From: an uncultured Peptococcaceae bacterium
Lineage (GTDB): Bacteria > Bacillota > Peptococcia > Peptococcales > Peptococcaceae
Assembly (NCBI GenBank): GCA_937976375.1
Contig: CALJRU010000030.1
Location: 94,467 to 158,466 of the forward strand
Direction: 5' to 3'
Length of the DNA: 64,000 bases
In this document: positions 4,750-34,081 of the stretch, one piece after another
Layout of the letters: each line of letters begins with the position of its first letter
Numbering within the stretch: position 1 is the stretch's first letter
Notes under the pieces: generated by a model
The model's database searches: none
Told to the model about the DNA's origin: nothing
What the model saw: only the letters and a program-made list of their open reading frames with translations
Made by a program: the position numbers and the translations under genes

Positions 4750-6174
4750 GTGAGTGTTATGGGTTTTGGTGGTGGATTATACACCGAAGAAAATAAGATT
4801 TTACCCGGCTCTTACTATAAGTATAAGTCTGCTGGAACTAACGTCAGCACTTACGCTGAACGAGGCCTTGTGGGATTAATTGCTCCGTCTGATTGGAGCG
4901 ATGGAGCATTGACGCGATTGGTTGTGCCAGAAAAGGAATTCGACCATAAAGGTGCCTATGTTTGGCCGCGTGATGCCGAAAAAGCCATTGGCTACGATGC
5001 TTATACCGCACTACCAGCATCTTATTCCGCCGGTACCAATGATGCTAAGTGGTTGCCTGTTTTTGTCCGAGAAACTTTCCGCAATGCAACGGGGTGTTTT
5101 ATCTATCCGCTTTTGGGTAGCACAAAAGCAAAAGCCAGTTGTACGTATGCGACAGCGGCAAAATATGGCGAACGCGGCAATGATTTGTCCGTTAAAATCG
5201 ACGAGAATGACGATGAAACCTTTACCGTTTACACCTTGTTAGACGGCGAAGCCGTTGACACACAAACTGTAACCACCTATGCCGATCTTGTCGATAATGC
5301 TTGGGCGGCATTTGACAAAGAAACCGAATTAGCAGCATCAGCAGCTACAGTATTTACGGGCGGAGTCAGTGGTACAGCTACCGCCGCCGATGTAGCAACG
5401 GCTATTGAAACGCTTGGCAATTTTGGCGTTAACGTTATCGTGCCGTTAACAAGTCTCATGGATAAGGCCGCGTATGAAGTGTTCCTTGACCAGAACAATA
5501 AATACGGTCATTGGATGCAGTTGATTTGCGATAAAGACGCTGCTTGGCTACCTGAGGGTGGGCACGAATATTGTATTGCTCCGGACTTAGGGGCAGATAA
5601 CAGTCTCGTCAATGCAGAACTGCTTTACCCATGGATTGGGGGTGCTGAGGCTGCATGTCCGTTGGGTGGAACACTTGATAACGAAACATATAGCGGCGAA
5701 ATCATTGATTTCTTGATTAATACGCAAGGGCTGAAAGCACCAAAGCAAAGCGAACTTGAATATGGCATGAGAGCCGGTTATATGATGTTACACACCGTTG
5801 GAACTGAATGGCGGGTACTTAATGATGACAATACTTTCATTGCTTACACGCCAAAAAAGGACGAATCTTTCCATCGCAACCAAACCATCAGAGTGCTGCA
5901 GACGTTGTCCGTTGATTGGAATCAGATCTTCACTAATGAGTTTTTAGGGAGCGCAGGAACAGACGAGGCCGATCGAACCAACTACAAGATTCGACTTGTC
6001 GAAAGTGCCACCTATTACCAAAAACAAAGAGCCATTAAGAACTTTGACAGCGCTGATATCGTTGTAACCGAAGGTGCACAGAGTGACAGTTATCACGTAT
6101 CTTACTTTGTTCAACCAAACTTTTGCGTTCGCAAAGTATATAACGAAATTACTGTCGCAGCATTTAACAGTTAA
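4750..6174 (+). CDS. Phage tail sheath protein (XkdK-like)
   Basis: 474 aa, followed by a ~160 aa tube-like protein, a chaperone and a tape measure gene. This is the canonical contractile-tail order. Confidence 0.6.
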   Translation: MSVMGFGGGLYTEENKILPGSYYKYKSAGTNVSTYAERGLVGLIAPSDWSDGALTRLVVPEKEFDHKGAYVWPRDAEKAIGYDAYTALPASYSAGTNDAKWLPVFVRETFRNATGCFIYPLLGSTKAKASCTYATAAKYGERGNDLSVKIDENDDETFTVYTLLDGEAVDTQTVTTYADLVDNAWAAFDKETELAASAATVFTGGVSGTATAADVATAIETLGNFGVNVIVPLTSLMDKAAYEVFLDQNNKYGHWMQLICDKDAAWLPEGGHEYCIAPDLGADNSLVNAELLYPWIGGAEAACPLGGTLDNETYSGEIIDFLINTQGLKAPKQSELEYGMRAGYMMLHTVGTEWRVLNDDNTFIAYTPKKDESFHRNQTIRVLQTLSVDWNQIFTNEFLGSAGTDEADRTNYKIRLVESATYYQKQRAIKNFDSADIVVTEGAQSDSYHVSYFVQPNFCVRKVYNEITVAAFNS

Positions 6175-6189
6175 AGGGGTGAGAGATAG

Positions 6190-6675
6190 ATGTTTTCTTT
6201 AGCTGAAAGAATGGATGAGCAAGCTGTTGTGAGCGGTAATGATGCGATTGCCTATTTGATATTACCCGACGGACGTCGTAAAGTTTGGGCAAATATTTTA
6301 ACGTTTGAGGCCAGCGAATCTTACAGCAAGACAAAGTATCCGATTCTGGGGAGACGCACAAAACCTGCGAGAAAAGGTCCTGGCGAGGTTGCAGGCAAAG
6401 TTAAAATGCACTACAACACCAGTACATTTCGCGAAGCTGCTCTCGAATACAAGAAAACCGGAAAGGATGCTTTCTATAACGTACAAGTGGTTAATGAGGA
6501 CCCAAACAGTGGTGTAGGCCGGCAAACGGTTATCTTCTATGGATTAAACTTTGACGAGATGCCGCTTGCACTGATCGATGCCGAAAGTGATTATTTGACC
6601 GAAGAACTGTCCTTCACGGCCAATGACTGGGATCTTGAGAACGTCTTTGGCGACGGTGGCTTACTTGATGCTTGA
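6190..6675 (+). CDS. Phage tail tube protein (XkdM-like)
   Basis: 161 aa directly after the sheath gene. Confidence 0.5.
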   Translation: MFSLAERMDEQAVVSGNDAIAYLILPDGRRKVWANILTFEASESYSKTKYPILGRRTKPARKGPGEVAGKVKMHYNTSTFREAALEYKKTGKDAFYNVQVVNEDPNSGVGRQTVIFYGLNFDEMPLALIDAESDYLTEELSFTANDWDLENVFGDGGLLDA

Positions 6676-6727
6676 TATACTAGCCGCGCTTACATGCGCG
6701 GCATATTTTTTGGGGGTGCTTTATTTT

Positions 6728-7186
6728 ATGAATTTAAGTCGTCTTATGAAAGAAAACGTTAAGAGCGTTGAAAATGTTAACTACTACCCATCGGATAGAC
6801 TGACCGACGAGGATGGTAATCCCCAGGTATGGGTTTTGCGTCCGCTCACTACAAAAGAAGTCGACGCTATCACAGAGAAATGCACAAATACAGAAAACAA
6901 GATTGAGTTTAACTCTCGCGGTAAACGTAAAGTGAAAAAGAATGTAGAGCTGAGAACCATGGAATTGGCTGACGAAATGGTTCTGGCTTCTTTAGTCGAT
7001 CCATCTCGTGAAGATTTCCAGGACGCAAAACTGCAGGATGACTGGGGTGTGTTTAACGAACTTGATTTGCTCAAGGCGTTACTGCTGCCCGGCGAATATA
7101 CCGACCTGGTACAAGAAGTGCAGCGCTTGTCTGGATACGATATTGACCTTGTCGATGGCGTAGAAAATGAAGCTAAAAAAAACTAG
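6728..7186 (+). CDS. Tail assembly chaperone (XkdN-like), zero-frame product
   Basis: 152 aa between tube and tape measure. Start chosen at the ATG after a GGGGGTG RBS. Ends EAKKN-stop inside an A8 run. Confidence 0.5.
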   Translation: MNLSRLMKENVKSVENVNYYPSDRLTDEDGNPQVWVLRPLTTKEVDAITEKCTNTENKIEFNSRGKRKVKKNVELRTMELADEMVLASLVDPSREDFQDAKLQDDWGVFNELDLLKALLLPGEYTDLVQEVQRLSGYDIDLVDGVENEAKKN

Positions 7187-7362
7187 ACGAAAATGACGCG
7201 GATTATCTAACAGCGTATCTCCTATTTACAGATCACCATATTTTGCCGAGTGAATATATAGCAATGTCCGATGCTGAAAAAGGCATCATTAGGGCGTTTT
7301 ACCGTAAACACAAAGAAGATACAGACAGGGCCAATGCTGAAATTAACAAAAACATCCGTTAG
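6728..7362 (+). CDS. Tail assembly chaperone, -1 frameshift-extended product (G/GT-like)
   Basis: A -1 slip in the A8 run at 7175..7182 enters an open frame (KLDENDADYLTAYLLFTDHHILPSEYIAMSDAEKGIIRAFYRKHKEDTDRANAEINKNIR-stop at 7360..7362). That frame is closed by TAA just upstream of the slip site. Confidence 0.5.
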
Positions 7363-7377
7363 CAAGAAGGTGAGAAC

Positions 7378-9288
7378 ATGGCAAGCATTAGAACGATATT
7401 TTCACTCATTGACAATATGTCCAGCCCTTTGCAGCGAATAGAAGCCAATATGCAGCGTGCTCAACGTACTGCAGAAGCCACTGGCGCATCTATGGATGGT
7501 ATCGGTAGTGACCTGTCTAATGCCGTGGCGAATCAAAGTCGATTCAACGCAATGCTCGAAGCAGGCAATCGGCAAGCTTCAACGCTCAAAGGAACCATTA
7601 AGAGCGTGGCTGCAGCTTATATCGGCTTTCAAGCTGTCACTCAAGGGGTCTCCTATTTTGTTAGACTGAGTGACACTTTGACCAGTGCTGAGGCGCGTTT
7701 GGCGGGTATTGTCGACGAAACCCAAACACTTGAAGAACTATCACAAAAAGTTTTTGATTCTGCGCAACGGTCTCGAGGTGCTTATGCTTCTACTGCTCAG
7801 TTTGTAGCACGTGTAGGGCAAATGGCATCTGACCTTTTTACAAACGACGAACTTGTAAGGTTTGCTGAGACATTGAATAAGCAAATGGTCATCAACGGTA
7901 CATCAACCTGGGAAGCTGAGGCAGCCATGACACAGCTGTCTCAAGCCTTGGGATCCGGTGTACTGCGCGGCGAAGAATTAAACTCCGTATTTGAGCAGGC
8001 GCCTGGGGTTATTAGCCTCATTGCGGATTATCTCGATGTGGATATTGGTCAGATACGAGCCATGGCGTCAGAAGGGATGTTGACTGCTGAAGTCGTTAAA
8101 AATGCCGTACTTTCTGGTGCCGATGAAATCGACAAAGCTTTCGAAAGCATGCCTATGACATGGGCCCAAACGTGGCAAAAATTTGCAAATGAAGCTGCTT
8201 GGTCCTTGAGACCATTGTCTGATTTATGGTCGCAGGCGCTTAATAGTTCCACGGTTCAGTCAACAATGACGGTTTTCGCTTCGCTGATAGGTTTGCTAGC
8301 ACAGGGAACTGCCTATGTTGTCAACGCTGCTACGAACTGGGAACATTTTGACACTGTTCTTAATGTCGTGAAGGCAACGGTTGGCGTGGGCCTTGTGTAT
8401 GCATTTGGTCTGCTTTTAATTGCTGGTGACAAGGCATTTACCTGGCTTACTCAAAAAGCGCTTGCTTCAACTCTAGCTTTCGCTACAACCCATCCAGTAT
8501 TAACAACCATGATTGTGATTATGGGGCTGGCTGCTGCAGCGGCAACAGAGATGGGGCTGACTTTTGAAGACGTTGTTGCAATGATTGCCGGTGGTGCTGC
8601 GGGTGCAGGGAACGTTATCCGATGGGCATTCCAAAATGCTTGGATGGAAGCCAAAGTCGAAACGAACAATGCACTGCAATGGATGATGGATAAAATCACC
8701 AGATTTATTAACTGGACTGCAAGCAAAGTAAATAATAATAAATTACTTGATGCCATGGGCATCAAGATGGACACGGTAGATTTTACACCAAACTACCAGT
8801 CCTATGATTGGGTATCAGTTTCCGAAGCTTTTCAAAATGGCTATAACAGCGGTAGCTCCTTTGCGAGCCAGGCAATGAGCTGGGTAGGAGATAAGTTGTC
8901 TGGCATCACAGATATTGTTGATCAAGCGACTAGCCTTGGTTCAGGATTAAATGTAGGGACGATACCAACCGCTGAAGATATCGGCTTTGATACCAGCGGC
9001 CTTGAAGATTCGTCAGATGATACAGCAAAAAGTTCTGAAACAACAGCCGAAAATACGAAAAACATCGCTGATACTCTCAGTACAGTTGCCAGCGACATGG
9101 CGTATTTCCGGGCGCGCGTGCGCGGTTTGGAAATGCAAAGAATTGAGCAGAACATTAAGCTGGACATTAACGCGCCGATTAGTGGTACTGGGTCAGCTGA
9201 GATTGATGGATTCTTGAAAGCATTTACGGGCGCATTGGAGACAGAACTCAAAAACAGTAAAAGAAGCATTGCAACTGCGGGGGTGTAA
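7378..9288 (+). CDS. Phage tail tape measure protein
   Basis: 636 aa, Ala/Gln-rich and helical with a central hydrophobic stretch. Follows the chaperone/frameshift pair. Confidence 0.7.
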   Translation: MASIRTIFSLIDNMSSPLQRIEANMQRAQRTAEATGASMDGIGSDLSNAVANQSRFNAMLEAGNRQASTLKGTIKSVAAAYIGFQAVTQGVSYFVRLSDTLTSAEARLAGIVDETQTLEELSQKVFDSAQRSRGAYASTAQFVARVGQMASDLFTNDELVRFAETLNKQMVINGTSTWEAEAAMTQLSQALGSGVLRGEELNSVFEQAPGVISLIADYLDVDIGQIRAMASEGMLTAEVVKNAVLSGADEIDKAFESMPMTWAQTWQKFANEAAWSLRPLSDLWSQALNSSTVQSTMTVFASLIGLLAQGTAYVVNAATNWEHFDTVLNVVKATVGVGLVYAFGLLLIAGDKAFTWLTQKALASTLAFATTHPVLTTMIVIMGLAAAAATEMGLTFEDVVAMIAGGAAGAGNVIRWAFQNAWMEAKVETNNALQWMMDKITRFINWTASKVNNNKLLDAMGIKMDTVDFTPNYQSYDWVSVSEAFQNGYNSGSSFASQAMSWVGDKLSGITDIVDQATSLGSGLNVGTIPTAEDIGFDTSGLEDSSDDTAKSSETTAENTKNIADTLSTVASDMAYFRARVRGLEMQRIEQNIKLDINAPISGTGSAEIDGFLKAFTGALETELKNSKRSIATAGV

Positions 9289-9291
9289 CAC

Positions 9292-10107
9292 ATGGCTGAC
9301 GCATTAACTGTATCACGCTCTAATAGTAACGGGTCGACCGTTGATATGTCGACCCTTGTTGGATCCGGTATGCAGCACTCTGTATACATTAATGAGGAAT
9401 GCATGCCTATTGCCCCGGCAAAGATTACCATCACGATTGCAAACAAAAACAAAACAGTGGATCTTGCTGCTGGCGGTGTGTATAAAGTGCTAAACATGCC
9501 CGGGCTTACATCCTATGAATTTGAGCTAATCATTCCACATGATAAGGACAGCTTACCATTCGCTGTATATCAAGATGGATTTCAGCCGCCACAGCATTAT
9601 TTTGACCTTTTTGAAAAACTCAAAACAGCTAGCGACCTGAATGACCGCGCATTCCCATTTGTTGTTGTCGATAATTCCAGCGAGCCTACATTGATATCGA
9701 CTATTGTTACATTGGAGGACTACGAGATTACGCAAGATGCCGATGAAGATGTGCTTGATTATAGGATCAACGTCAAGCTGGAAAAATATGAGAGACACGT
9801 AACACAGTCTTTCACATTAGTTGAAAATGGAGACGGCACATGGACGGCTATTGATGATGGCATGCACGACCGACTGCAGGCTGCTGCCGATGCAATGAAC
9901 GCAGCCCAAAACGCTATCAAAATGGCACAGGGCGCCGCAGCACTATCACAAAGCATGAAGACGAAGAAAAGCACAACAGTATCAGAAGCAGCTATTGAAC
10001 TGTCAAAATCTGGTAATGTGTCAGTTGCAGATATAAAGAATATCGCATCTGCGAATGGTATTAGCCCTTGTGACACGTTGCTAGCTGGGACGGTGATCCG
10101 TAAATGA
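9292..10107 (+). CDS. Phage tail protein (XkdP-like distal tail protein, putative)
   Basis: 271 aa between tape measure and the tail hydrolase. The C-terminal ~40 aa is weakly LysM-like. Confidence 0.35.
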   Translation: MADALTVSRSNSNGSTVDMSTLVGSGMQHSVYINEECMPIAPAKITITIANKNKTVDLAAGGVYKVLNMPGLTSYEFELIIPHDKDSLPFAVYQDGFQPPQHYFDLFEKLKTASDLNDRAFPFVVVDNSSEPTLISTIVTLEDYEITQDADEDVLDYRINVKLEKYERHVTQSFTLVENGDGTWTAIDDGMHDRLQAAADAMNAAQNAIKMAQGAAALSQSMKTKKSTTVSEAAIELSKSGNVSVADIKNIASANGISPCDTLLAGTVIRK

Positions 10108-12116
10108 GCGAAAACAAGAATGAAATTGTTACAGGCGACCATACTCGAGCATACATAGAGCTGTACACCGTGGATGGTACAGGAACACCCCAGAAAATGT
10201 TTAAGCCAGTGTTGTTGGACAATATAAGCTGGTACTCAGAGTGGGCGTGCACCCCGTCAAAAATGACATTCACTGTCCTGAAAGACGGTGTAATCAATTT
10301 TGGAATGGGCACAAAAGCAGTCTTAAAAATAAATGATGATGTTGAATGGTCCGGCTATGTTATGCACAAGCACCGCACAAAAGATGTCAAAATCGAATGC
10401 ACGGCTTACGATAACTTGCGATATCTCAAGGTAAAACTGTATCAGAGTTTTGAAAATGTGCAAAGTGCTGCAGATCCTGTGAAAAAGATCCTCGATATGC
10501 TTGAACTGCCCGTCGGAGAGATTGACGAATTGAAGCAGGCTACACAAGGAGACGTTGTTTTTGATGGTAAAGAAGCACTCGAGGTCATAGAAGAATTGAT
10601 CGGAGCTCATGCGGCATTGTCTTTAGAGAATCTGGTATTTTTTGACAAAGCTGGAAAAATCTACCTCAAAAAGCTTGATAATATGCGCGTCACTAATCAA
10701 TTTTTCACCGCAGGCGAAATGGAAGACTGGGACTATACCACGTCTATTGAAGACAGTTATAACTCTATCATGATTGACGTGCTGCAGTCTGATGGGGAGA
10801 CTCACGACCGTTTTGTGACCGTAGAGGATGAGGGCAACATTAACCGCTGGGGGCTATTGCGCTATGTTGCGCAAAGCAATGAAGAAATAGAGGCAATAGA
10901 GTCAAAAGCAAAAGTGTTGCTGGAATTACTCAATAGAGAGGTTCGGACACTGAAGCTAACAAAAGTTGTTGGCAACCCTCAAATCAGAGGCGGGTCAATG
11001 ATCGCTGTAAAACTTAACCTTGGTGATATGCTGCTGTATAGCTGGATGGTGGTCAAGGAAGTTACTCACACCATCGGGCAGGATGGGTACTGGATGGACA
11101 TGACCGTCACCAATGAAAACCTTGGTTTCGCCGATCCGGTATCACCTGATGGTGCATTTACAGTCACTAAACCTACGTCCGACGCATCTAGCGCGACAAG
11201 TGTGGGCGGTACAGGAACATATGAAGAGCGTATGTATAATACGTTGCGTGCTAACGGGTTCAGTGCACAATCGGCTTGCGGTGTTCTGGCCAACGCGTGG
11301 GCAGAATCTGGGGTAGAACCAACAAAACAACAAATCGGCGGAAACGCGTACGGCCTATTCCAGTGGGATGATCGCAAGACTAAGCTCATGAGCTGGTGTC
11401 AGTCTGGAGGATACGACTACACGTCATTTGAAGGCCAGATGGCATATTTCTTCTATGAATTTAACGGCGGAGATTCTACTTGGATTAGTTATGCCAATGC
11501 TAATTGTGCTGGTACTTCTGGCTTTAAGAATCTGATCAGCCTTGAATCTGCAACCACGATATTCTTGCGAGGATTTGAACGCGCTGGCGTTGAGAGATTG
11601 CAGGAACGTATCAACAAAGCTCACGAATACTACGATAAGTGGGGACAATATACAACTATACCTGGTACGAGTGGCAGCGCAAACGGTGATGGGAAATACA
11701 CGGGTCGTATGGGATGGCCTTTTGCTGGTGGTGGCGGTACCATTACACAAAACTTTAGCTGGAACGGCAAAAGTGGGCATTTGGGCATGGACATTTCGAC
11801 TCGCAGTGGTACCGGTGCTGGTTCTCCAGTGCTGGCTGTTGACGGTGGCACAGTCGCAAGTGCCGGTTGGGCTGTAAGTCATAGCTCGTATGGTAACGAG
11901 GTAAATATTAAACACAAAGACGGACTGTATACAAGATATGCGCATCTATCGGCCATAAATGTTAGCGCCGGACAGTCTGTCAGCAAGGGTCAGCAAATTG
12001 GTGTTGAGGGGAATACCGGAAATAGCTATGGTACACATTTACACCTAGAAGTACATGCTGGCATTCCTAACGGCCAGAGATACGACCCCGCGGGATACTT
12101 ACACAGAAATGGGTGA
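10104..12116 (+). CDS. Tail-associated peptidoglycan hydrolase: N-terminal tail/hub domain, lysozyme-like domain, C-terminal M23 peptidase
   Basis: 670 aa. The middle segment (YNTLRANGFSAQSACGVLANAWAESG...YGLFQWDD) resembles phage tail-lysozyme domains. The C-terminus carries the M23 motifs HLGMD...YGNEVNIKH...THLHLEV. Confidence 0.65.
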   Translation: MSENKNEIVTGDHTRAYIELYTVDGTGTPQKMFKPVLLDNISWYSEWACTPSKMTFTVLKDGVINFGMGTKAVLKINDDVEWSGYVMHKHRTKDVKIECTAYDNLRYLKVKLYQSFENVQSAADPVKKILDMLELPVGEIDELKQATQGDVVFDGKEALEVIEELIGAHAALSLENLVFFDKAGKIYLKKLDNMRVTNQFFTAGEMEDWDYTTSIEDSYNSIMIDVLQSDGETHDRFVTVEDEGNINRWGLLRYVAQSNEEIEAIESKAKVLLELLNREVRTLKLTKVVGNPQIRGGSMIAVKLNLGDMLLYSWMVVKEVTHTIGQDGYWMDMTVTNENLGFADPVSPDGAFTVTKPTSDASSATSVGGTGTYEERMYNTLRANGFSAQSACGVLANAWAESGVEPTKQQIGGNAYGLFQWDDRKTKLMSWCQSGGYDYTSFEGQMAYFFYEFNGGDSTWISYANANCAGTSGFKNLISLESATTIFLRGFERAGVERLQERINKAHEYYDKWGQYTTIPGTSGSANGDGKYTGRMGWPFAGGGGTITQNFSWNGKSGHLGMDISTRSGTGAGSPVLAVDGGTVASAGWAVSHSSYGNEVNIKHKDGLYTRYAHLSAINVSAGQSVSKGQQIGVEGNTGNSYGTHLHLEVHAGIPNGQRYDPAGYLHRNG

Positions 12117-32707: not shown

Positions 32708-34081
32708 GTGGTAAAAGCCAAAACGAGGTATGTTTGTCAAGAGTGCGGTTATCAAACACCTAAATGGATGGGGCGTTGTCCCGATTGTGGGGCATGGAAC
32801 AGCCTTGTTGAAGAAGTGATGGCTCAGCCGCAGGAAAAGAAAGCCGGTCGCCCGCATCTGCAGCCTTTGGCTGGCGGCAGCAGTAAACCAGAATCGCTTT
32901 CAGCCATTCATAGTACAGCAGCCAATCGCGTGGATACAGGCATTCGAGAATTGAATCGCGTGCTTGGCGGCGGTTTGGTACCTGGTGAATTGGTGCTGCT
33001 GAGCGGTGATCCGGGAATTGGCAAGTCGACGCTGACCATGCAGCTGATGGATAAAATCGCAGGCAGCGGACAGGTGCTCTATGTTTCTGGCGAAGAATCA
33101 AAAGGGCAGATTCGCAATCGTGCTGAGCGACTTGGCGTGTCAAGTACACGGATTCATGTGATGACGGAAAACAATGTTGAAGTGTTGGATGCTGTTGTTC
33201 GCGGTCAGCATTGGGACCTTTTGATTATTGATTCCGTGCAGACTATTTTTGATCCGGCGGTGCAATCAGCGCCAGGCAGTGTTTCTCAGCTGCGTGCCGT
33301 AACAGCCGTCTGCATGGGTTGGGCAAAAGGCGTTGGGATTCCCACAGTGCTTATTGGTCATGTGACAAAAGATGGAACCGTGGCTGGACCGCGTGTGTTG
33401 GAACATATGGTGGATGCTGTGCTTCTTTTTGAAGGAGATCGTCAATCTCAGTATCGAGTGCTGCGTGGGCTGAAAAACCGTTTTGGCTCTATCAATGAGA
33501 TTGGCGTATTTGATATGACCGGCGAAGGCTTGGTTGAAGTGGGCGATGCTTCACGAGTGTTCCTCTCAGAGCGTGCGAGTGCGGTGAGCGGCGCTGTGGT
33601 AACAGCGCTTCTCGAAGGTTCGCGTCCCATTCTTGTGGAAATTCAAGCATTGGCAACGAAGTCTTTCTATGGACAGTCACGCTGCATGACAACGGGGATT
33701 AAATATGACCGTGTGTCGATGTTGATCGCTGTACTGGAAAAACGTGCCGGTTTACGGCTGGGCGACCAAGATGTATATTTGAATGTGGTGGGCGGTTTGC
33801 GTGTGGACGATCCTGCCTGCGACTTGGCAGTGGCCATGGCCATTGCATCTAGCTATTTGGATAAATGTATTGCGCCAGATATGCTGCTGTTGGGTGAGGT
33901 TGGCTTGACAGGCGAACTGCGCCAGGTCAATCAGCTGGAGCGGCGATTGCGCGAAGCGGCGCAAATGGGTTTCCGCAAAGCGATTGTGCCAAAGCAGAAA
34001 AAGACGTTGAAGATTCCGCAGATGGAAGTCATTGAACGATCGTTTATCAACGATGTCATAAATGAATGTTGGAGGGAGTAA
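32708..34081 (+). CDS. radA: DNA repair protein RadA/Sms
   Basis: GTG start after AAGGAGG. N-terminal Zn finger CQECG...CPDCG, Walker A GDPGIGKST, KNRFG motif, Lon-like C-terminal domain. Confidence 0.9.
   Translation: MVKAKTRYVCQECGYQTPKWMGRCPDCGAWNSLVEEVMAQPQEKKAGRPHLQPLAGGSSKPESLSAIHSTAANRVDTGIRELNRVLGGGLVPGELVLLSGDPGIGKSTLTMQLMDKIAGSGQVLYVSGEESKGQIRNRAERLGVSSTRIHVMTENNVEVLDAVVRGQHWDLLIIDSVQTIFDPAVQSAPGSVSQLRAVTAVCMGWAKGVGIPTVLIGHVTKDGTVAGPRVLEHMVDAVLLFEGDRQSQYRVLRGLKNRFGSINEIGVFDMTGEGLVEVGDASRVFLSERASAVSGAVVTALLEGSRPILVEIQALATKSFYGQSRCMTTGIKYDRVSMLIAVLEKRAGLRLGDQDVYLNVVGGLRVDDPACDLAVAMAIASSYLDKCIAPDMLLLGEVGLTGELRQVNQLERRLREAAQMGFRKAIVPKQKKTLKIPQMEVIERSFINDVINECWRE

Follow-up and report, generated by a model that had tools for sequence, protein, structure and literature searches.

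Does a run of eight adenines (A8) near the end of a tail assembly chaperone gene act as a programmed -1 ribosomal frameshift site, in the manner of the G/GT genes of tailed phages? The question is posed by a 64,000-nucleotide (nt) stretch of DNA, hereafter the window, from an uncultured Peptococcaceae bacterium (GenBank assembly GCA_937976375.1, contig CALJRU010000030.1, positions 94,467 to 158,466), in which two overlapping open reading frames (ORFs) sit between the tail tube and tape measure genes of a prophage, namely the 0-frame ORF of an XkdN-like chaperone (6728-7186) and an ORF in the -1 frame (7177-7362). Comparison of this locus with its relatives indicates that low-level -1 ribosomal frameshifting very probably takes place on the heptamer A_AAA_AAC, and that it would produce a G/GT-like pair of short and long chaperone forms.

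A direct reading of the DNA places the A8 run where the original prediction had put it, with every coordinate intact (Table 1). In the chaperone frame the site reads GAA AAT GAA GCT AAA AAA AAC TAG ACG. The chaperone indeed ends in EAKKN, but the stop codon that had been placed inside the run begins one nucleotide after it. Just upstream, the -1 frame is shut by the expected TAA, which shares its two As with the start of the run, and on the downstream side it is open from 7177 to 7359, a stretch of 61 sense codons where 60 had been counted, until a TAG that ends 15 nt short of the tape measure ATG at 7378, also as claimed. Because the -1-frame TAA upstream and the 0-frame TAG downstream bound it, a productive shift is confined to the run itself. 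The chance of finding 61 open codons, given the window's own density of -1-frame stops, is approximately 1.5-2% (P about 0.015), and A8 runs are not rare in the window (6 observed versus 9.6 expected). Chance alone is a modest argument, and it is the comparative evidence that lifts this feature above it.

The closest relatives of the window chaperone are short metagenome contigs from ENA, which form three groups at 95, 70 and 65% amino acid (aa) identity. All three groups (L005/6, L007/8 and L009) keep the sequence CT AAA AAA AAC T with the same A8, and their -1 frame is open for 59-60 codons and ends just before the tape measure gene. Searching phage records by tblastn with the predicted fusion returned two-piece matches, one to the chaperone and one to the shifted extension, in several phages, and the two-frame layout can be read directly in the DNA of CPAS-15, Jimmer1, MissE2, MismyG, phiCDKH02, CDMH1, phiC2 and phiOH2 as well as in phiCD508, phiCT453A, the PBSX-like PBP180 and three gut phage contigs. 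The chaperones of these distant relatives end E-[AV]-K-N-stop, encoded GCA/GTA AAA AAC TAA/TGA, and overlap a homologous -1 ORF of 54-66 codons that begins KKLI. Other routes to relatives were less productive: the window chaperone as sole query found none in the GTDB species representatives or IMG/VR, a five-sequence alignment held no conserved stretch usable as a search pattern, and a DNA-level search of phage records returned only an 84-nt match in the tape measure gene.

To count the arrangement across species, we scanned GTDB, taking one genome per species, with peptide patterns well away from the site, built on an alignment of an abundant 141-aa subfamily; a parallel scan of IMG/VR, in which the pattern covers the site and near-identical loci were returned, was excluded from the statistics. 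Among the 80 GTDB loci, the in-phase heptamer is A_AAA_AAC in 76 and A_AAA_AAU in two, and the remaining two (L060 and L061) carry indels, that of L061 being upstream of a heptamer still in place. In L060 (Lacrimispora xylanisolvens, NZ_CP070896.1) the site reads GCAAAAACTAAT, an A5 run whose one-base deletion puts the extension out of -1 phase; this locus is either a pseudogene or a homopolymer error. Two proteins, P0028 (ending EAKTNS) and P0091 (ending EAIN), resemble L060-like variants. Overall, the arrangement is conserved in 14 phage or contig lineages, in 78 of 80 GTDB species loci and in four further phages, and the relatives that possess the heptamer include phages of Clostridioides, Clostridium, Brevibacillus, Geobacillus and Streptococcus in addition to PBP180.

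Codon choice at the site is far more restricted than the encoded peptide requires. XXA AAA AAC stands there in 85 of 87 non-identical genes, with AAT as the last codon in the other two, whereas codon usage would lead one to expect it in about 6% per gene: elsewhere along these genes AAA accounts for 55% of lysine codons, AAC for 36.5% of asparagine codons and GCA for 31% of alanine codons. Synonymous sites flanking the heptamer vary freely, and KN forms the C-terminal end of 110 of 124 homologous proteins. We take these codon counts to show that the heptamer is under selection at the nucleotide (synonymous) level. The run length, by comparison, is A6 in all other relatives, and the extra AAA codon that makes it A8 occurs only in the window's clade among 92 genes. 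The conserved signal is thus the in-phase A_AAA_AAC together with the adjacent stop and not A8 as such, which is a clade-specific elaboration; the original prediction was right that a slippery site lies here, but the signal at work is not the A8 run on which it had settled. Its broader claims fared better, in that the open -1 frame on which it staked its case is kept in essentially all homologous relatives examined, and the proposed likeness to G/GT of tailed phages is supported by the two-frame layout and the in-phase heptamer that these relatives share.

The 0-frame stop lies directly 3' of the heptamer in 72 of 78 loci. In L007/8 the 0 frame continues for eight more codons, and the adjacent stop is therefore not obligatory. 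Among 92 genes, the -1-frame leucine codon that creates this stop is CTA 61 times and CTG 21 times (together 82/89). CTA makes up 66% at this position, whereas at the other CTN codons of these genes its share is 8% and that of CTA and CTG combined 49.5%, an excess that argues that the adjacent stop is itself selected. Either the stop may belong to the signal or the C-terminal length of the short form may be constrained. Selection of this strength may also mean that the shift comes about through slippage in the P site, with the stop codon waiting in the A site, which would be a -1 counterpart of prfB.

Most relatives additionally possess a long, stable hairpin that starts 5-8 nt after the heptamer (L017-L096, L003, L011, L013 and L180). 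Its minimum free energy is -25.6 kcal/mol in L017 (z -6.3), -22.2 kcal/mol in Jimmer1 (z -4.9), -27.8 kcal/mol in phiCT453A (z -4.6) and -20.6 kcal/mol in CDMH1 (z -4.3), and z is -2 or lower in 36 of 48 non-redundant relatives. RNAalifold predicted no structure when run on all 48 sequences. The family hairpin was specified by hand and then counted on the 48-sequence alignment (columns 17-24/59-66 and 38-41/49-52), in which 74% of cells pair, versus roughly 40% when the partner is slid. The 5' arm, G[A/G]AGG, covaries with the 3' arm, CCU[U/C]C (A-U 36, G-C 28, mismatch A-C 3, G-U 3), and at the protein level this exchange is a glutamate-to-glycine replacement in the 5' arm (GAA to GGA) and a synonymous leucine change in the 3' arm (CUU to CUC). 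In phiCD508, PBP180 and MissE2 the stems are stable but differently built, and four A_AAA_AAC lineages with an A6 run (A6C lineages), namely CPAS-15, phiCDKH02, L024 and L055, have no hairpin.

Several points weigh against ribosomal frameshifting in the window. Our conservation statistics count related sequences as independent, which overstates their significance. No stimulatory structure follows the heptamer in the window: its segment 7184-7250 (67 nt) folds at -4.2 kcal/mol with a z of +1.5, the weakest of the 48, the slightly longer segment 7184-7260 has a z of +1.0, and there is a one-codon deletion in the region of the 5' arm of the family hairpin. On the upstream side, no Shine-Dalgarno-like stimulator was noticed on visual reading, and no dedicated scan was made. 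A_AAA_AAC is moreover much less shift-prone than A_AAA_AAG in E. coli (PMC5009743), and we found no experimental report of the fusion protein for the window or for any XkdN-family element. Finally, the A8 run also permits transcriptional slippage or a slip one codon earlier.

Were transcription the source, the polymerase would stutter on the T8 template and add one A to some transcripts, giving a product with the junction ...EAKKK-LDENDADY..., which differs from the ribosomal fusion by a single residue. The window's clade is the only one among the 92 genes to have gained the AAA codon that lengthens the run, its downstream region is the least structured of the 48 relatives, as would fit a changed mechanism, A/U homopolymer runs are known to yield indels in mRNA (PMC4066793), and the junction EAKK-LI of the metagenomic protein P0007, as inferred from the protein, is what the insertion of one A would produce. 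The A6 run found in the rest of the family is nonetheless too short for efficient slippage by a bacterial polymerase, and that family keeps the in-phase heptamer and, for the most part, a hairpin at the spacing canonical for ribosomal frameshifting. Known cases of programmed transcriptional slippage in bacteria involve homopolymer runs of about nine or more, against which the window's A8 is borderline. Given that the window retains the canonical in-phase A_AAA_AAC with its adjacent stop, and that hairpin-less A6C lineages exist, which means that a longer run is not required by hairpin loss, we consider transcriptional slippage unlikely as the explanation for this locus. Also improbable is that the signal was remodelled in the window's clade, from A6C with stop and hairpin to a hairpin-less A8 with two heptamers that operates partly or mainly through transcriptional slippage. 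If true, this would be a natural switch between translational and transcriptional recoding that yields the same fusion protein. We rejected as a firm conclusion the idea that A8 compensates for the lost hairpin, again on account of the hairpin-less A6C lineages, and any link between the longer run and hairpin loss is purely hypothetical.

The -1 ORF evolves in the manner of a coding sequence. Between the window and L007 the extension differs at 14, 16 and 41 sites in -1-frame codon positions 1, 2 and 3, respectively, and holds 21 synonymous codon changes in the -1 frame versus 3-4 in either of the other frames, a pattern that marks the -1 ORF as protein-coding. Homology runs from the heptamer onward, with E148, K150 and K151 invariant and D157 and A163 nearly so, and the extension has homologues in the -1 ORFs of the phages and in the C-terminal part of EJ-1 ORF55, where it is in frame. 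It matches phrog_2722 with an E value of 3.5e-6. A phmmer search of the 61-aa extension against 1.84 billion representatives returned one 50-aa ORF of its own clade plus P0125 and P0126; the latter two, proteins of about 1500 aa with tandem repeats (E 3.6e-11 and 3.8e-5), were rejected as homologues because the matches are repeated and weak.

These features bear on the idea that the -1 ORF is a separate gene, made alone through an internal start or through reinitiation downstream of the TAG, with no recoding. Phage records do call a small 'hypothetical protein' at this place (CPAS15_0065, Jimmer1 gp22, phiCD508 gp58 and PBP180 ORF21), and 50-aa genes are annotated on L007 and L009, P0127 being a gene call of this type. 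The family possesses no conserved start codon for such a gene, however: the position of the first ATG, GTG or TTG varies and none is present in 8 of 91 genes. The window's first such codon is a TTG near 7243 (about codon 22-23), downstream of the most conserved residues, and a product begun there would lose KLxxxDxxYxxAY, which is conserved right from the heptamer. Independent ORFs would also have no need of synonymous constraint on the heptamer, and natural in-frame fusions exist, among them four metagenomic proteins of the 124 homologues (e.g. P0007, with the junction DEAKKLINGGDY). We consequently regard two separate genes as very improbable. That the -1 frame is open by chance or as a relic in a decaying prophage, with no extension made, is scarcely credible, for although a 61-codon open run has a 1.5-2% chance of arising, A8 runs are common and a one-base deletion breaks the phase in L060, the heptamer and ORF are conserved across many genera, in more than 90 genes, substitutions fall as they do in coding sequence and the surrounding head and tail module is intact.

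The extension is not always laid out as it is in the window. In Streptococcus phage EJ-1 (L001, AJ609634.1, 1681-1710), chaperone and extension form a single 198-aa ORF, ORF55, which reads GAAGAAAGCAAAAAAC where its close relative MismyG (L179), whose layout is the usual two-frame one, reads GAAGAAGCAAAAAAC, with one extra A in EJ-1 five bases upstream of GCAAAAAAC. We do not accept ORF55 as proof of a viable fused-only form, as a sequencing error in the 2004 record is equally likely. In phiCDKH02, CDMH1 and phiC2 (L010-L012), Jimmer1 (L003) and phiCT453A (L180), additional genes separate the extension from the tape measure gene, so that the two are not adjacent in every phage. The interval is about 3.5 kb in CDMH1, where it includes a Bro-N protein, and phiCDKH02 possesses a dUTPase gene between tube and chaperone.

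What our analysis establishes at the level of sequence is the gene family, the gene order, a selected heptamer and a coding-type -1 ORF with no start codon of its own. From these we infer that slippage occurs, at what rate and on which tRNAs, and what roles the two products would play. Under -1 ribosomal frameshifting, most ribosomes would translate 6728-7183 and stop at the TAG at 7184-7186, releasing the 152-aa XkdN-like chaperone, while a small fraction would slip back by one base on A_AAA_AAC, where the P site holds tRNA-Lys on AAA and the A site tRNA-Asn on AAC. The slipped ribosomes would read CUA GAC GAA in the -1 frame as far as the TAG at 7360-7362 and make a fusion of approximately 211 aa, ...EAKKN-LDENDADY..., with a 59-residue helical C-terminal domain. 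The original prediction of a fusion through the run holds up in this scheme, but its junction, EAKKK-LDENDADY, does not follow from canonical tandem slippage, which would keep the asparagine and give EAKKN-LDENDADY, detectable as the junction peptide EAKKNLDENDADYLTAYLLFTDHHILPSEYIAMSDAEK. The lysine junction (peptide EAKKKLDENDADY) would arise instead from a slip on U_AAA_AAA one codon earlier, from a P-site-only slip or from an inserted A. With no stimulatory structure downstream, the efficiency of frameshifting in the window is probably low, at a few percent or less as in IS1 or lambda. If the products work as in lambda, the tape measure protein would be coated by the short form, and recruitment of the tube protein would fall to the rare long form.

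The identification of the 0-frame product as a tail assembly chaperone, another element of the original prediction, is secure. PF08890 (Phage_TAC_5) matches it with an E value of 7.5e-32 and 110.5 bits against a cut-off of 27, residues 3-146 corresponding to positions 1-132 of the 135-position profile, and phrog_389 (tail protein XkdN-like) does so at E 3e-33. The family profile finds PDB 3KLU, which is B. subtilis YqbN, at E 1.7e-29. In an AlphaFold (AF2) model of the predicted fusion, the predicted local distance difference test score is 80-96 for the chaperone domain, 54-56 at the junction and 63-74 over the helical extension, and a Foldseek search of PDB with this model returned 3KLU (E 1.3e-6, target-normalised template modelling (TM) score 0.81) as the sole match at E <= 0.001. 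Its place between the tube and tape measure genes agrees with this identity. NCBIfam offers no model for either chaperone or extension, and Rfam has no match within 6000-8000. The start codon is most likely the ATG at 6728 and not position 6623, where the mechanical ORF list begins a 187-aa ORF, because the Pfam alignment begins at residue 3 of the shorter form.

In the wider window, head genes lie upstream of the tail module and host genes such as radA (32708-34081) lie to the right of the prophage. By its gene content the region is a PBSX-like contractile-tail module of a prophage whose head and tail module is intact. The product encoded at 10104-12116 is probably a tail-associated cell-wall hydrolase. 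Between the tube stop codon (6675) and the chaperone start lies a terminator-like element at 6683-6712, a 7-bp stem made up entirely of G:C pairs (GCCGCGC-TTACAT-GCGCGGC) followed by ATATTTTTT. Compared with sheath and tube, the chaperone, the tape measure and the genes after them could be expressed less on account of this element.

Table 1. Features of the chaperone locus and its tail module, in coordinates of the window.
Feature	Position	Strand	Basis or remark
Tail sheath gene	4750..6174	+	Pfam Phage_sheath_domII, Phage_sheath_1C; phrog_279 tail sheath, E 4.6e-59
Tail tube gene, XkdM-like, DUF2001, directly 5' of chaperone	6190..6675	+	PF09393, E 1.5e-30; phrog_365
Tail assembly chaperone, XkdN-like, 0-frame, 152 aa ending ENEAKKN (G-like short form)	6728..7186	+	PF08890, phrog_389
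-1-frame TAA, overlapping the first two As of A8	7174-7176	+	5' limit for a productive shift; direct reading
A8 run	7175-7182	+	holds U_AAA_AAA and A_AAA_AAC as overlapping slippery heptamers; confined to the window's clade
In-phase slippery heptamer A_AAA_AAC (X_XXY_YYZ)	7177-7183	+	P-site Lys AAA 7178-80, A-site Asn AAC 7181-83
-1 extension ORF (T-like domain), 61 sense codons and TAG	7177-7362	+	product KKLDENDADYLTAYLLFTDHHILPSEYIAMSDAEKGIIRAFYRKHKEDTDRANAEINKNIR
0-frame TAG, directly 3' of heptamer	7184-7186	+	direct reading
Tape measure protein gene	7378..9288	+	PF20155 TMP_3, E 1.9e-47; phrog_1068, E 1e-100
Tail protein, YqbQ-like domain with phage tail lysozyme and M23 peptidase	10104-12116		domain matches

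Current annotation gives little hint of a long form. In none of the 15 annotated phage records examined is it annotated or are the two ORFs joined, and the -1 ORF has either no annotation or one as a 'hypothetical protein' of its own. The structure paper on phiCD508 likewise lists gp57 (XkdN-like) and gp58 (small, unknown) as separate items (PMC11948020). A search of the literature for a frameshift in XkdN, xkzB or PBSX found no statement of one in what is searchable, and Xu et al. 2004 may already list PBSX-type elements. XkdN-like chaperones are annotated as 'portal protein' in PP767789.1 (phiCDKH02_44), OL774875.1 (MissE2_0022) and MZ983385.1 (PVJ1), and in phiCT453A a note gives the same label to the XkdM-like tube protein, which looks like a propagated annotation error. 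The motif GCA AAA AAC UAA/UGA, which a hairpin usually follows after 5-8 nt, provides a simple rule for annotating the long form in PBSX-like elements, diffocin-type particles and Bacillota myophages, as well as a defined site at which the tail assembly of tailocins could be engineered. The G/GT rule is already textbook and is left unchanged by one more protein family, in which a specialist would expect such a frameshift; within it, the XkdN-family case appears to be a new and well-supported addition.

The tail-assembly frameshift of long-tailed double-stranded DNA phages is reportedly a conserved one, as described by Levin, Hendrix and Casjens in 1993 and by Xu, Hendrix and Duda in 2004. G/GT frameshifting is widely conserved in long-tailed phages, including the contractile-tailed P2 with its E/E+E' pair, and in lambda the short form coats the tape measure and the long form recruits the tube protein (PMC5009743). 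As in lambda gpG/gpGT and P2 E/E+E', the overlapping ORFs of the window are flanked by the major tail (tube) gene on one side and the tape measure gene on the other. As in lambda, too, the first ORF has the slippery heptamer at its 3' end, the extension stops shortly before the tape measure gene, and the long form would be expected by analogy to be made in a low, fixed proportion to the short one. A further likeness to gpG/gpGT is the absence of the products from virions, judging by phiCD508, whose XkdN-like gp57 and small gp58 are both missing from virion mass spectrometry (PMC11948020); gp58 is the -1 ORF on our reading of the DNA, and this absence is consistent with what is expected of chaperones. 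Unlike gpG, to which we detected no sequence similarity, the window chaperone belongs to the XkdN/YqbN family PF08890, its heptamer is A_AAA_AAC instead of G_GGA_AAG, its 0-frame stop directly abuts the heptamer, and frameshifting in its family is a prediction from sequence.

Within the XkdN/YqbN family of PBSX-like elements and Bacillota myophages, the window chaperone is a direct homologue (110.5 bits; TM 0.81), and it shares both the gene order of sheath, tube, chaperone, small ORF and tape measure and the heptamer with its stop motif. The small downstream ORF in B. subtilis PBSX is named xkzB (bioRxiv 10.1101/2022.04.13.488263), and our comparison with PBSX rests on PBP180, in which the small ORF is ORF21, as a PBSX-like proxy for B. 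subtilis xkdN-xkzB. Unlike other family members, the window's clade has an A8 run with an extra lysine codon and no detectable hairpin, and its extension has diverged from those of the family to the point that phmmer recovered only its own clade.

Beyond tail genes, A_AAA_AAC is among the consensus heptamers of conserved prokaryotic frame transitions (PMC3711429). Most XkdN relatives resemble the dnaX and IS911 cassettes in that a hairpin with compensatory changes follows the heptamer by 5-8 nt, and in having no hairpin the window differs from these cassettes. The window instead resembles IS1, in which A_AAA_AAC directs proven -1 frameshifting with no established stimulator (PMC4066793). The insA-insB' pair of IS1 encodes a transposase and its host is E. 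coli, unlike the window chaperone, but the two share the same heptamer in a bacterial host, and the proven shift in IS1 is a low-level one, like that predicted for the window.

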